From NCBI RefSeq assembly GCF_017348835.2, contig NZ_CP071375.1: 64,000 bases of DNA, one strand, 5' to 3'. Each line of letters begins with the position of its first letter. Position 1 is the first letter of the stretch. Positions 36,001 to 42,000 of this stretch are shown one piece after another. This DNA comes from Escherichia coli (GTDB lineage: Bacteria; Pseudomonadota; Gammaproteobacteria; Enterobacterales; Enterobacteriaceae). A program made the position numbers.

Positions 36001-39000
36001 ATCTCTTCATGACAGTTTCCTGATTAACTGACGTGCTGTGTGCCAGGGGATATAAAACAGGTGAATTGATCAGCGAGCAGAGGGTAACTCGCTGCCTGGG
36101 GTAATTCGAAGTGCCACCATTCGCTGGAGATACCGACAAAACCGCCACCAGTCATTATCGCATTCAGCAACAGGCGATTGCGCTGAGCGGCGGGCGGGAC
36201 GGAAGGATGGTAAGCATGGGAACGTTCGTGCATTTCATCGAATCCTGCGCCCATATCGAGGATGTTCCCGTGCTCATCACGAAGCGTCAGGTCGATCGCT
36301 GTGCCACGGCTGTGATTAGAACCGACCGTCACATCAACAACATATTGCGGGTCTGGGCAGGCTTGCCACAACATCGCCTGTGCTTGTTGTGGGCGATACG
36401 CATCGTAAATCACCAGTTGTAAGCCTGACAGCTGGGCGATACTGATACTTTTCGCCAGCGCGGTAATCGCATCCTTGTGTAACAGACAACGCGCTTGCTG
36501 GTAAATAGCTTTACCTGTGATGTTATCAGCGCAGGCGTATTTCAATTCGATCTCCAGATCAGGGAAGATCGCGGCTAAATCAACCAGTTCGGTGGTATCC
36601 GACATAAACGGTTCCTGTATAAGACAAAAATTGCTGCGCTTTCCGCTTATGCAGATCTCATGCCATGCCGGGAGAAGCGCCAGAATGCTGGCTTAAAGTT
36701 ATATTTTTTAACTTTTGATCAACATTTGTGCAGCGTAGTGCAGTTTTGGTGCAAGAGGGGAAGTTAAGGAAGGAATCTCCCGGAATCGTAGCTGAAATCA
36801 CAGTATTTAAGTGACAGTGTCACGTTAAATGAAAACCCGCGAGTGCGGGCGAGAGGAATTTGTCAGATTTTCAGCGGTAACACGCTGCTCATCCAGCCTG
36901 GAATTTCTTCGGCGGGTAGGGGGCGGGAAAAGAAATATCCCTGAATAACGCGACAGTGGATCTTACGTAGCATCTCAAATTGCTCTTTGGTTTCGACGCC
37001 TTCCGCCACGACGGTTAAATTGAGGCTTTGCCCAATGCTGGTAATGGCTTCAAGTAAGGCAAGGATGCGTTTTTCCGTCAGACAACGATCGACAAAACTT
37101 TTGTCAATTTTGATTTCCGTTACCGGAAGACTGACTAAGCGGGATAATCCGGAAAAGCCCGTGCCAAAATCATCTACCGATAAACCCACGCCCATATCAC
37201 GCAGGATCTGAATGCGCTTAAAGATTTCGGTATCGTGTTCCATCATCATGCTTTCCGTGATTTCTACCGTCAGCTGGTGGCCGTCAATACCCCAGGCTTG
37301 CATTGCATCAGACACCTGATTAGGCAGTTGATTACTGCGAAAGTGCAGCGCCGACAAGTTAACGGATAACGCCGGGATATGAATATTCTGGCTACGCCAT
37401 TCTGCTAACTGACGGCAAGCTTCCGCGATGACCCAGCGCCCAATATTTTCGATTTCACCAATCTCTTCTGCGAGAGGAATAAACCGTGAAGGGGGCACAT
37501 GACCATGCTGGGGATCGTGCCAGCGAGCAAGGGCTTCGATGCCGTACAGTTCACCCGTTTCTGCGAAGATTTGCGGCTGGTAAACCAGTTTCAGTTGGTT
37601 ATTGCTAATCGCTTCTTTCAGCGCTGCGCCTAAAACCAAACGCTCTTTTACCATTTCGTTCATCGCCGGGCTGAAGAACTGCCAGCCGTTACCGCCATTC
37701 TTGCGAATATAATCCATTGCATTGTGAGCAGTGGAGAGCAGGTAATCGCGGTTTTTACCCACGTCGTAGCTGATGCCAATACTCAAGGTAAGCGGGAAGG
37801 GTTTATCGTCAATCATTATCGGCTTGCTGACCACATTCCGTAGCTCATCGGCGATTTGGGTAATGTTACTGACGTCGTTTTCCAGGCTCACGAGGACAAA
37901 CTGCGTACCTTCGATACGACAGAGATACTGATCCGGTTTGAGTTTTTCACGAAAGCGATTGACCACTTCCAGCAATGCCTGATCGGCCCACGCATAGCCA
38001 AGGCTATCAATCACATCCTGAATATGGTCAACACCGATGAGATACACCACCGGAGAGACGGCTTTGTCGACCAGGTCATCGAGGTAATTGTGCAGGTTAT
38101 TGCGATTTGGCAGACCGGTCATCGGATCAAATTGGATGAGTTGTTCAATATGCTGACGGCTTTTTTCCTGTTCCAGCGCCAGCGCGGCCATATGCTGGCT
38201 GATATCTGCCACGCGTTCGATAAAGGCGCTGGTTTCTGCTCCTGACGAGGTTTTAATTTGCAGGATCCCCGCAGGCGCGCCATCACGCTGACGAATGGTC
38301 GCTGACCAGCTTTGCGCATTTTGAACTTCTGCACCGTGCGAAGATGACGCCCAGTGTATCGGCATCCCGTTGCGCAGTGCGAACAGCGAAACATGCGATT
38401 CGTTGAGAACAGATTCGATATTACGACAAATGATTTCCCCCATTTCATGAAATGGCGGGCTGCTGCACATGGCGGCGAGAATATTGCCTTCAAGCTGGCG
38501 GATCTGCCGTTCTTCGGTGATATCCGAGAAAGTCATTACCAGGTTCTGCAGATGCGCGAGCACGTCATAAACCGGGCTGATAGAGGCTTTAATCCAGATT
38601 TTTTCACCGGTGCGCGTCAACAGCAGAAATTCGTCCTGATCGCGGGCGGTTTTCCATAGCAACTGTTGTAAACGAATGCGGTTATCGGCAGGGAATTCAG
38701 GAATGTTCAGGAGTGTATCGGGCTGCATACCGCTGGCTTCGCTAATGCAGTAACCAAACATTTCGGTAAATGCGCGATTGCACTGCACAATATGGCGTTC
38801 CGGATCGAGGACAATCACCGGTCGGTCGAGATGGTCAACGGCAATAATCAATTGTCTGGTCTGTTCTTTTTGCGCCATTTCTACGCTGGCATCCCGTACC
38901 AGCGCCAGGTAATAAACTTTCCCCTCGGCGCTCACTTTCGATAGCGCAAAACGGGTCCAGATTTTACTGCCGTCTTTTTTCTCCAGCTGCAGCTCCCGAC

Positions 39001-42000
39001 TCATCCCCTCGACACGCGCTTTACCGCCTTCACGGTTATGACGAATGTATTCAGGATGCGCAGGACGCAAATCCCGCGGAATCAGCATATCAATGTTATT
39101 GCCAATGACTTCTTCACGTTTGTATCCCCAGAGCTTCTCTGCGGCGGGGTTGAAAAACATCACTTCATCATTTTCGTTAATTAACACCGCACCCATCATA
39201 TTTTGCTCAAGGGCGGGGAAAAAAATGCCATCGGCGGCATTATCCGCATCGGTTAGCTTCATGATTACCTCTGCATCCTGGCGCATCTAAAGACTGGCTT
39301 TCCAGAGTTCAACACGGTTTCTACCTCGTCTTTTGGCGATATACAGAGCTTCATCGGCTATTTGAATGAGGCGCTCATAGTCAGGATGACCATTAAACAT
39401 GGCGGCACCGATGGAAAGTGAGAGGGCAATATCTTCGCCGTTTGCGGCTTTCAGTTTGGTTTTCTCCACCCGACTGCGAATACGTTCTGCGGTACGTAAC
39501 GTTTCGTTTTCAGAAGCTTCAGTTAAAACAATGATAAATTCATCGCCCCCGTAGCGGAAAACATAATCACTACTGCGGACGTTGTCATAAAAGGCCTGAG
39601 AGACTTTACGCAGAATTTCATCGCCAGTGTTATGGCCCCACGTATCGTTGATCTCTTTGAATTTATCAACGTCAATAATCAGCACTGACAGTGGTGTACC
39701 GGTCCGGTTGGCATGGGCAATTTCGCGTTTGAAGATAGTCGGCAGGAAACGGCGGTTAAGTAATTTCGTCAGTACATCCATACCGACTTCGTGGCGCGAT
39801 ACTTCTTCAAACAATTCACGCAGCAAGGTAATAATTTGCGATACAGTATTTCTTATCTGTAATAAAAATTTCACCCGCAGACTTCTGTTATTCAAATTCC
39901 TGGTGTTACGCATGGTTTGATTGAAAATACCGTCGAAATCCTGAATCAGACGAGAGATATGGCCCACTTCAGCAATGCCGCTGAAATAATGTCGACCTTT
40001 ATGGTTAAACCACAGGCCAAAATCAGCCTGGCTTAAAGGCAAACTACTGCCTAAATCAGAATCCAGCAGGATTTTATAGATAATATCTATTTCCCATGAA
40101 AGTATTGAGGCTATTTGCCGTTCTTTTTCTTCTTCGGCGTTTTCCAGTAACGAGAAGATACGATAGTTTTCATCTTCTTTTGAGGCACTACTGTCACTAA
40201 AGGTAAACGCGCGAGTCATCACTTCCATCGCGATATCAATACTGTTAATCGAGAAATGGTAGACCTGAAGTTTTTCTGCGGCGGAATAATCCGAAGAGAA
40301 GATTACCGGATAGAGGATTTTTTTCAGCACCCGAAACCCCATCTCGACAATTTCTACCGGAATTCCTATGCGGGCATGCACTTCCGCGACGGTATGCTGG
40401 ATTTGTATTAGCCTTTCGACATCGTCAACCTGGGCAGAAAGCACGTTAATAATCCAGCGCTCCATCGCACTTTTCAACTGCCGCTCAACTTGTTCATTAC
40501 TCAAGAATTCTTCGGCATGCGGGTCGATGCGGACAATTCGATAAAACTCGATACTCAGATAATGAGCATGCGCAACGGCAATTTCCGCGGCTTTAGCACG
40601 AATGGGCGGATCTGCCTGCTCGACAAGTCCGGTCCACTCATCTTTCATTCTTTTAAAATACATCTCCATAATTCACACCCTTATAAGGCTGGGAAATCAG
40701 ACGGAATCAAAATGAAACGCAACGTGCGAGATCGACTAACTGCACCATATTCTCCTGAAATATGAAGATATACTGAAAAGAAATATGCGACTTAGGACAG
40801 TTTCAATCTACGCTACTGTTCTTCAGAAGAGTATAGCCCATCGTAATTATTTTTCGGTGACAGCGAATATCGTATGGTTTTTCATATTCATACATTTTTA
40901 TTAGGGGATTTATGGCTGTTTAACTAAGCGTGGTTAATTGCGTGGTTAATTTGACTTTAGTAAGCATGATTACTAGTGGGATAGTTCAAGAGGGTAACAA
41001 GCCGGTGGGTAAAGCACCGGCTTGTTACAAAGTAAGAATGGGAGTTTAACTGCCCCAACGACTTTGCAGATAGCTGACCGCTTGTTGAGTCTGCGGTTTA
41101 TTCAGATAGTCCTCACGGAACAAGATGGTGCCGCTAATTTCGGGTACCGCATCGTTAAGATCGAGCTGCTTTTTCAGCTCCGGTACGCCGCCGTTAATCA
41201 TCCAGTCTGGCTCTATCTTTGAAGGTTCACCCACTTTATAGAAGGCGATACCGATATACAGGCGGGTCTTGGTCGGTTTAACGACATCCGCCCACCATTT
41301 TGCCAACACGTCATAACGCGCGGCACTCCGTGAGAACGGCCAGTAAATTTGGGGAGCAATATAATCCAGCAATCCTTGTTCCACCCATCGACGGGTGTCA
41401 GCGTAGGATTCGTCATAGGCTGCCGCACCTCGGGTATCGGAACCGAGCGGATCGTGTGATCGGTTACGCCACACGCCTGCCGGGCTAACACCAAATTCGA
41501 CTCCCGGCTTAATGCTTTTAATGGTGTGCGATACTTTTGCAATTAACTGCTGAGTATTGTTGCGCCGCCAGTCTGCTTTTGACGCAAATGCGCCTCCGTA
41601 TTTGCGGTACGTTTCGTTATCATTTAGCCGTGAACCCGGTGACTCAGTATAGAAATAGTCGTCAAACTGCACGCCATCTACCGGATAGCGGGAAACCACT
41701 TCTGCGACTATTGATGTGATCCAGTCCTGAACCTCAGGGATGCCCGGGTCGAGGACAAAGCGATCGCCAGACGTTCTGATCCAGTCACGGTGTTGCACAT
41801 AGACGCTCGCCGGTTGTTGAGACAGAGTGCTATTCAGTTCCCTGATAGTACCGGGCTTCGTATTAACCGATACGCGATAGGGGTTAAACCAGGCGTGTAC
41901 TTTCATCCCACGCTTGTGGGCTTCGTCGAGCATAAATTGCAGCGGATCGTAACCCGGATTTTCACCAATCTTACCGGTCATAAGATCGGACCATGGCAAA

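Follow-up and report, generated by a model that had tools for sequence, protein, structure and literature searches.

The dosC-dosP Locus

The Escherichia coli window analyzed (64,000 nucleotides of contig NZ_CP071375.1) carries two co-oriented ORFs on its minus strand, dosC (dgcO, formerly yddV; 39287-40669, 460 aa), coding for a globin-coupled heme sensor diguanylate cyclase, and dosP (pdeO, formerly yddU or Ec DOS), coding for a c-di-GMP phosphodiesterase that senses oxygen through a heme-PAS domain. The dosP product has 799 aa if read from the annotated start (36863-39262) or 807 aa from an upstream ATG (36863-39286). In the ddpX and digH-gadC neighborhood, dosC directly preceded dosP in the same orientation with a gap of 24 nt, and the order ddpX-dosP-dosC-(yddY)-digH-gadC was the same in the window, K-12, and the pig isolate PE164. 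The window was an almost exact match to PE164, including 100% DNA identity at the two genes, which are named dosC and dosP in the RefSeq annotation of that isolate. The locus was found in 5413 of the 5426 complete E. coli genomes, annotated as dosP/dosC.

The stretch was interpreted as the canonical yddY-dosC-dosP (dgcO-pdeO) transcription unit of E. coli, with a probability of about 0.97. The locus is intact, near-identical to K-12, and ordinary, and the operon is already well studied. A preliminary description of this DNA had named the known DosC/DosP pair with a RYGGDEF cyclase and an EAL phosphodiesterase. Both ORFs were found at the positions that it gave with domain matches much too strong to arise by chance (GGDEF E = 5e-51 and EAL E = 1.4e-70, Pfam), the identification agreed with K-12 (460/460 and 795/799 residues identical and the same gene order) as well as the PE164 gene names, and the sensor-domain search set beforehand as the refuting test recovered Protoglobin in DosC and heme-PAS in DosP. 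The sequence holds nothing contrary to this identity, which is settled by the K-12 identity and the solved structures. A scan of the whole window at Rfam gathering thresholds gave no structured RNA in the dosCP region, the sole match being the fdnG SECIS element. The dosCP pair is a textbook case of heme-based gas sensing tied to c-di-GMP turnover in which every domain has a solved structure.

The DosC Cyclase

Pfam domains of DosC included a protoglobin (residues ~27-155; PF11563, 41.5 bits versus a cut-off of 25), the DosC-specific, CZB-like middle domain (180-289; DosC_2nd PF21118, 166.7 bits versus a cut-off of 31, covering model positions 1-110/110), and GGDEF (297-452; PF00990, 173 bits). 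Each was matched by a structure in the PDB (E = 1e-77 to 1e-104), comprising 4zva/4zvb for the globin (E = 1e-96 to 1e-102), 4zvc for the middle domain (E = 1.7e-77), and 4zve for GGDEF. The heme-pocket residues proximal His98, distal Tyr43, Gln60, and Leu65 were present along with RYGGDEF at residues 372-378 (GGDEF 374-378) and an RxxD motif (RSSD) at 365-368, five residues upstream of the GGDEF motif. The protein thus combines the features of DosC, i.e., a sensor globin with His98/Tyr43, the middle domain, and an intact GGDEF motif.

Protein comparison showed DosC to be 100% identical to the characterized K-12 protein, and this together with the literature suggests heme binding and ligand-dependent cyclase activity (PMC11543664, PMC4263535, PMC8846402). 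The sources disagree on the heme state that activates the enzyme: the Gilles-Gonzalez group describes c-di-GMP production by unliganded DosC (PMC11543664), whereas the Shimizu review and a 2022 census describe activation by O2 binding (PMC4263535, PMC8846402). This split in the literature is one of three refinements to the earlier reading, the others being an ambiguous dosP start and an upstream extension of the unit (see below).

The DosP Phosphodiesterase

DosP contained, in order, hPAS, PAS-PAC, a silent GGDEF-like domain (EGTQF), and EAL, recognized in Pfam as two PAS, GGDEF, and EAL domains. It matched the DosP equivalog NCBIfam NF008467 with 1646.5 bits (cut-off 857; model 1-800/800), PAS_9 at the N-terminus with 99.6 bits, PAS_4 at 150-261, GGDEF at 386-533 with 78.5 bits, and EAL (PF00563) with 237.8 bits. 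The degenerate GGDEF reads RIEGTQF in translation, consistent with the name “EGTQF domain” (PMC11543664). PDB matches included full-length structures (9bgv/9cdr), the EAL domain (4hu3, E = 4e-178), and hPAS (1v9y/1s66). The heme-PAS residues described for the protein (PMC11543664) were present as His77 (proximal), Met95 (distal), and Arg97 (O2 hydrogen bond) in the 807-aa numbering, accompanied by Asp40, Leu99, and Phe113. The EAL catalytic set was also complete, with the EAL motif at 584-586 (807-aa numbering), N643, ExxE 675 (E675xTE), DDFGTG 705, K726, EGVE 762, and QG 782. The equivalog match, heme-PAS ligands, PAS_4 plus EGTQF region, and EAL motifs that characterize DosP were accordingly all found.

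These residues bear on whether the primary role of DosP could lie outside O2-gated c-di-GMP hydrolysis. It might instead be a cAMP phosphodiesterase, as initially suggested for Ec DOS, or a sensor of redox state, CO, or NO, which would make the module label only partly right. A review of Ec DOS treats its catalytic activity on cAMP in one section (PMC4263535), the enzyme is activated by CO and NO as well (PMC4263535, PMC11543664), and CO, HCN, and redox are further DgcO signals according to the 2022 census (PMC8846402). However, the EAL domain carries the full c-di-GMP catalytic motif set, Arg97 that is specifically required for O2 binding is present, and cryo-EM structures with c-di-GMP plus kinetic data describe O2-regulated c-di-GMP turnover (PMC11543664). 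The alternative is extremely improbable.

Compared to K-12, DosP was identical at 795/799 residues and carried the changes I313V, L501V, L585Q, and H655Q. The last two lie in the EAL domain and could be taken as a sign that the pair is present with one partner non-functional in this strain, as a decaying module like neighboring genes and other E. coli lineages: the adjacent ddpA has a nonsense codon (TGG-to-TAG), gadB is frameshifted in the closest relative PE164, and dosC is almost wholly lost in ~21% of complete E. coli genomes. Against this, DosC has the same sequence as the K-12 protein, which is biochemically active, and inspection of both ORFs found them full length with no frameshift, premature stop, lost heme ligand, or lost catalytic residue. 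Natural strains also differ at the substituted DosP positions, with V313 and V501 being the majority state, Q585 and Q655 are found in O157:H7 as well, and positions 585 and 655 fall outside the conserved EAL motifs. The four substitutions are probably neutral and loss of function in either partner is very improbable. The strain carries the intact K-12-like module, unlike the roughly one fifth of sequenced E. coli without dosC.

Junction, Leader, and Terminator

The dosC-dosP junction (39263-39286, minus strand; TAGATGCGCCAGGATGCAGAGGTAATCATG) contains a Shine-Dalgarno GAGG 5 nt 5' of the annotated dosP ATG. The preliminary description had placed the genes 24 bp apart, which is exact from the dosC TAG (39287-39289) to the annotated dosP ATG (39260-39262) but varies with the start codon chosen, as a second in-frame ATG (39284-39286) abuts the dosC stop. 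From this ATG the junction reads as eight in-frame codons (MRQDAEVI), giving the historical 807-aa DosP. Which ATG starts dosP is ambiguous (799-aa or 807-aa form): the NCBIfam model NF008467 begins at residue 9 of the 807-aa ORF, the cryo-EM constructs contain MRQDAEVI and are numbered in the historical way (PMC11543664), and the junction sequence was the same in six diverse E. coli. The overlap-style UAG-AUG might permit coupled initiation of the 807-aa DosP beside the 799-aa form. A hairpin with a T-run in the first dosP codons (39224-39241, minus strand), returned by the terminator scan, was rejected as an internal attenuator. The T-run corresponds to Ile-Phe-Phe codons and the junction fold was not unusually stable (z = +1.4; 185/200 shuffles at least as stable), and the hairpin was therefore treated as chance.

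Upstream of dosC, the leader encodes the 13-aa small ORF yddY (40707-40748, minus strand), identical to the annotated K-12 b4746, with a strong Shine-Dalgarno sequence (CAGGAGAAT-ATG) and its end 37 nt from the dosC ATG. The YddY protein has been detected by epitope tagging (PMC6001520) and yddY is reported to be induced at low Mg2+ in a PhoQP-dependent manner (PMC11429745). Further upstream, a candidate sigma-S-type extended -10 element for the yddY-dosC-dosP transcript, GCTATACT (40830-40837, minus strand), was strictly conserved inside a ~140-nt block nearly invariant among six diverse E. coli strains. A sigma-70 promoter scan of the minus strand of the digH-dosC spacer returned no site, which fits a sigma-S promoter without a -35 element, and we infer that the GCTATACT hexamer may be the operon promoter. 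The operon has been described as RpoS-dependent (PMC11543664, PMC5635695), with co-transcription and RpoS-dependent stationary-phase expression of dosC and dosP reported (PMC11543664, PMC8846402, PMC5635695). The sequence is compatible with both, displaying no terminator between the genes and the conserved GCTATACT upstream. A 12-nt duplication upstream of dosC (40928-40951) is not specific to this strain, since comparison with five other strains showed that two copies are the common state and that K-12 has the deletion.

The span of 36863-40669 originally assigned to the module covers both genes exactly but omits this leader with yddY and the sigma-S-like -10 element. With the yddY leader, promoter, and terminator added, the functional unit reaches slightly beyond that span. 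The conserved leader (-10 element, strong Shine-Dalgarno, and yddY) might be no bystander, in that yddY translation could tune dosCP expression; this proposal, taken together with the 807-aa isoform, is speculative and unlikely. If correct, it would connect Mg2+ stress with c-di-GMP signaling that depends on oxygen, because yddY transcription is reported as PhoQP-dependent at low Mg2+.

At the other end, a putative intrinsic terminator (36827-36850, minus strand) has a 6-bp GC-rich stem (five GC pairs), a 4-nt loop, and the tail UUUUCAUUU. The hairpin GCCCGC-ACUC-GCGGGU (36835-36850, minus strand) is followed by UUUCAUUU, is identical in K-12, and folds with a dG of about -10.9 kcal/mol, modest against shuffles (z = -1.9). 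The unit had been described as ending at a terminator hairpin, and a hairpin with a U-tract is indeed present 12 nt past the dosP TGA, although just outside the coordinates then given. Terminator-like motifs in the region showed no enrichment (10 observed versus 7.1 expected), and the assignment of this hairpin as the operon terminator, including its exact position, is therefore inferred from location and sequence only. A second hairpin just past the digH stop (40996-41026, minus strand; 12-bp stem, dG -19.8 kcal/mol), conserved in K-12, is probably the digH terminator and as such would shield dosCP from transcription entering from upstream.

Proposed Oxygen-Responsive Control of c-di-GMP

For this locus, the literature supplies heme binding, regulation by O2, co-transcription, and control by RpoS, and the following model draws on the same sources (PMC11543664, PMC4263535, PMC8846402, PMC5635695). 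In stationary phase, an RpoS-dependent promoter would drive both genes as one transcript that ends at the hairpin terminator. DosC would bind heme in its N-terminal sensor globin via proximal His98 with distal Tyr43, and its C-terminal GGDEF would convert two GTP to c-di-GMP. In the absence of a ligand, His77 and Met95 would coordinate the heme in the first PAS domain of DosP; O2 would displace Met95 and then be held by Arg97, and the change would pass through PAS-PAC and the silent EGTQF to switch on the distal EAL, which would hydrolyze c-di-GMP to pGpG. With their differing O2 affinities, DosC and DosP would act as source and sink and set local c-di-GMP by oxygen; the pair is reported to function within an RNase E/PNPase degradosome.

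Comparison With Known Systems

The closest system is the K-12 dosCP operon (b1490-b1489; DgcO/PdeO; formerly yddV-yddU/dos), which has the same genes, order, orientation, 24-nt junction, and neighbors with identical terminator and yddY. DosC is 100% and DosP 99.5% identical, differing by the DosP substitutions I313V, L501V, L585Q, and H655Q. In the digH-dosC spacer, the 12-nt unit AATTAACCACGC occurs twice here and in most strains compared to once in K-12, in addition to a few SNPs.

The sensor-globin, middle-domain, and GGDEF architecture of DosC is shared with globin-coupled sensor diguanylate cyclases such as Bordetella BpeGReg and Pectobacterium PccGCS, and the PDB globin domains 4uii/4uiq and 6m9a matched its N-terminus (E = 1e-13 to 1e-19). 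These cyclases are orthologues or paralogues from other genera with much lower identity to DosC and, to our knowledge, they generally lack a heme-PAS phosphodiesterase partner in the same operon. For DosP, the NCBIfam FixL model matched residues 34-144; FixL and AxPDEA1 have a heme-binding PAS fold with a conserved O2-hydrogen-bonding Arg like that of DosP (PMC11543664). Unlike DosP, FixL is coupled to a histidine kinase, and AxPDEA1 is inhibited by O2 whereas DosP is activated (PMC4263535, PMC8846402). DosP is described as using Met95 to coordinate its unliganded heme (PMC11543664).

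Organization of the dosC-dosP operon

The ORF listing of the window bore out two neighboring minus-strand ORFs at 36863-40669, namely dosC (39287-40669; 460 aa) and dosP (36863-39286; 807 aa from the first ATG and 799 aa from the ATG at 39262). The preliminary description of a GGDEF cyclase and an EAL phosphodiesterase was supported by FRYGGDEF at residues 371-378 of DosC (Pfam GGDEF, E=5e-51) and YGIEALARW in DosP (Pfam EAL, E=1.4e-70), E-values that place the observation far beyond chance and mark it as real. Its identification of the known DosC/DosP pair was likewise correct and already on record, and RefSeq labels the matching genes of the closest relative, PE164, dosP and dosC. 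The stretch is an intact, K-12-like dosCP operon, a correct finding that was already known; the additions are confined to the yddY leader and putative promoter as parts of the unit, the ambiguity of the DosP start (799 or 807 aa), and the population context. The G+C content of dosC (44.5%) was noticeably lower than that of dosP (50.1%) and the whole window (48.5%).

The reported gap of 24 bp was exact for the annotated dosP start (dosC TAG at 39287-39289, dosP ATG at 39260-39262). The junction reads TAG-ATG-CGC-CAG-GAT-GCA-GAG-GTA-ATC-ATG and was the same in six strains. On sequence, the dosP start is ambiguous between two forms. The downstream ATG is preceded by a well-placed GAGG, yields 799 aa, and is the start used in RefSeq, UniProt, and NCBIfam. 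The upstream ATG touches the dosC stop and yields 807 aa, the historical form and also that of the cryo-EM work, whose authors kept both the eight extra residues MRQDAEVI and the old numbering (PMC11543664). An internal hairpin with a T-run at the dosP start was rejected as a feature as its stability was not unusual.

Of the terminator hairpin proposed at the end of the pair, the structure was found, 12 nt past the dosP TGA (36835-36850, minus strand), with six pairs (five GC), loop ACUC, tail UUUUCAUUU, and a dG of about -10.9 kcal/mol; we infer its function as a terminator. The fold around it exceeded shuffled sequences in stability by just a moderate margin (z = -1.9), and terminator-like motifs in the region showed no enrichment (10 versus 7.1 expected).

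Domains and oxygen-sensing mechanism

The domain search, proposed earlier as the test of the assignment, identified sensor domains in both proteins. In DosC, Pfam placed a Protoglobin domain (PF11563) at residues 27-155, the DosC-specific middle domain (PF21118; 166.7 bits) at 180-289, and GGDEF at 297-452. In the 807-aa form of DosP, Pfam domains comprised a first PAS (~33-132), a second PAS (150-261), a GGDEF-like domain (386-533) with the motif EGTQF, and EAL (555-789). The NCBIfam equivalog “oxygen-sensing cyclic-di-GMP phosphodiesterase DosP” scored 1646.5 bits against a cut-off of 857, its alignment beginning at residue 9 of the 807-aa ORF. A PDB sequence search matched DosC to the solved globin, middle, and GGDEF domains (4zva-4zvh) and DosP to hPAS (1v9y and 1s66), EAL (4hu3), and full-length cryo-EM structures (9bgv, 9cdr, 9cmf, and 9clo).

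All heme-binding and catalytic residues assigned in the literature were in place in both proteins. These included Tyr43, Gln60, Leu65, His98, GGDEF 374-378, and the RxxD motif RSSD 365-368 in DosC, together with the DosP heme-domain residues Asp40, His77, Met95, Arg97, Leu99, and Phe113 and EAL-domain motifs EAL 584, N643, ExTE 675, DDFGTG 705, K726, EGVE 762, and QG 782 (807-aa numbering).

The mechanism is literature-derived and carried to an essentially identical sequence. The unliganded DosP heme is coordinated His77-Fe-Met95, and O2 displaces Met95 and is stabilized by Arg97 (PMC11543664), with a signal that covers almost 180 Å along the elongated dimer before it reaches EAL. DosC, the c-di-GMP producer, binds O2 more tightly (Kd about 20 µM) than DosP, whose dose response begins near 75 µM (PMC11543664). 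Sources conflict on DosC, for which either the unliganded form produces c-di-GMP (PMC11543664) or O2 binding switches the cyclase on (PMC4263535; PMC8846402). DosC and DosP form a complex and reportedly associate with RNase E and PNPase, so that RNA processing comes under local control by O2 (PMC11543664; PMC8846402; PMC5635695).

Upstream leader and putative promoter

K-12 annotation places the 13-aa small protein gene yddY (b4746) between digH and dosC, and an ORF identical to it was present at 40707-40748 (minus strand), with a strong SD (CAGGAGAAT-ATG) and its end 37 nt ahead of the dosC ATG. Chromosomal tagging has revealed the YddY protein (PMC6001520), whose regulatory region reportedly shows low-Mg2+, PhoQP-dependent induction, deletion being without phenotype (PMC11429745). 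Conservation was imperfect, as a 4-nt deletion near the 3' end alters the C-terminus in the divergent strain 2013C-4282 and several changes occur in the yddY region of the dosC-deleted lineage. The SD and first codons were invariant among the strains compared, and this pattern suggests that, if anything matters, the act of translation or leader sequence may do so more than the peptide.

A candidate sigma-S extended -10, recognized by resemblance (GCTATACT, 40830-40837, minus strand), lies in a block that hardly varies across six diverse strains of E. coli. It agrees with the reported RpoS control of the dosCP operon (PMC11543664; PMC5635695) and may be the -10 of the operon promoter. A strong hairpin after digH (40996-41026; dG -19.8 kcal/mol) probably insulates the unit. 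An upstream 12-nt tandem unit was rejected as a special feature since the tandem is the common allele and K-12 has a deletion. An Rfam scan found no RNA families in the dosCP region.

Other features of the window

A seven-gene cluster at 23859-30604 between osmC and ddpF encodes a 3-hydroxybutyrate dehydrogenase, GntP permease, 3-hydroxyacyl-CoA dehydrogenase, acetyl-CoA acetyltransferase, CoA transferase subunits A and B, and a LysR regulator. Since osmC and ddpF are presumably side by side in K-12, it has the look of an accessory island for short-chain ketone/acid utilization. The narU-yddG interval (8991-12835, minus strand) we take to correspond to the K-12 yddJ/yddK/yddL area. In the PE164 DNA that matches this interval, RefSeq annotates three features: the T3SS effector-like leucine-rich-repeat gene espR1, a truncated LRR fragment, and a frameshifted OmpC-family porin. 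The Rfam scan identified SECIS_3 (RF01989, 84.3 bits) at 14789-14847 (+) inside fdnG, coding for the selenocysteine-containing formate dehydrogenase-N alpha subunit, where it is expected and ordinary.

Just downstream of dosP, ddpA (34460-36010, minus strand; periplasmic binding protein of the D,D-dipeptide ABC transporter) carries a TGG-to-TAG nonsense change at codon 203 versus K-12 (35402-35404), giving two ORFs, and RefSeq classes the PE164 copy, which has an internal stop, as a pseudogene. The gadB gene (44187-45589; 466 aa) is intact, whereas that of the otherwise near-identical PE164 is frameshifted by a 2-bp TA insertion at about window position 44573.

Comparison with relatives and K-12

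Across the 4.35-kb region, identity was 100% with E. coli F2_81 and with PE164, a pig isolate from China, and positions 1-44573 differed from PE164 by single bases at 6802, 7299, and 18720 only. Among 5426 complete E. coli genomes, 5413 had a match to the region, 4254 of them at ≥80% coverage; almost all of dosC is deleted in ~21%, so that dosP is commonly orphaned from its cyclase partner. In the one such genome examined (NZ_CP063515.1, 1580-4167), a 164-nt 3' dosC remnant persists, the ddp operon is missing, and dosP adjoins osmC. In O157:H7 TR01 (3968-3970 of its dosCP locus), dosC starts with ATT in place of ATG (ATTATGGAG to ATTATTGAG), which could reduce how much DosC is translated in this lineage; RefSeq keeps the same protein accession.

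Compared to K-12 MG1655, DosC was identical (460/460) and DosP matched at 795/799 residues, differing by I313V, L501V, L585Q, and H655Q, none inside a catalytic or heme motif. Judging from the strain comparison, all four are natural polymorphisms: V313 and V501 occurred in 5/5 other strains, with K-12 the outlier at both, O157:H7 TR01 likewise has Q585 and Q655, and L585 and H655 were seen in other lineages. The hairpin after dosP was identical to that of K-12, and the gene order ddpX-dosP-dosC-digH-gadC-gadB was the same.
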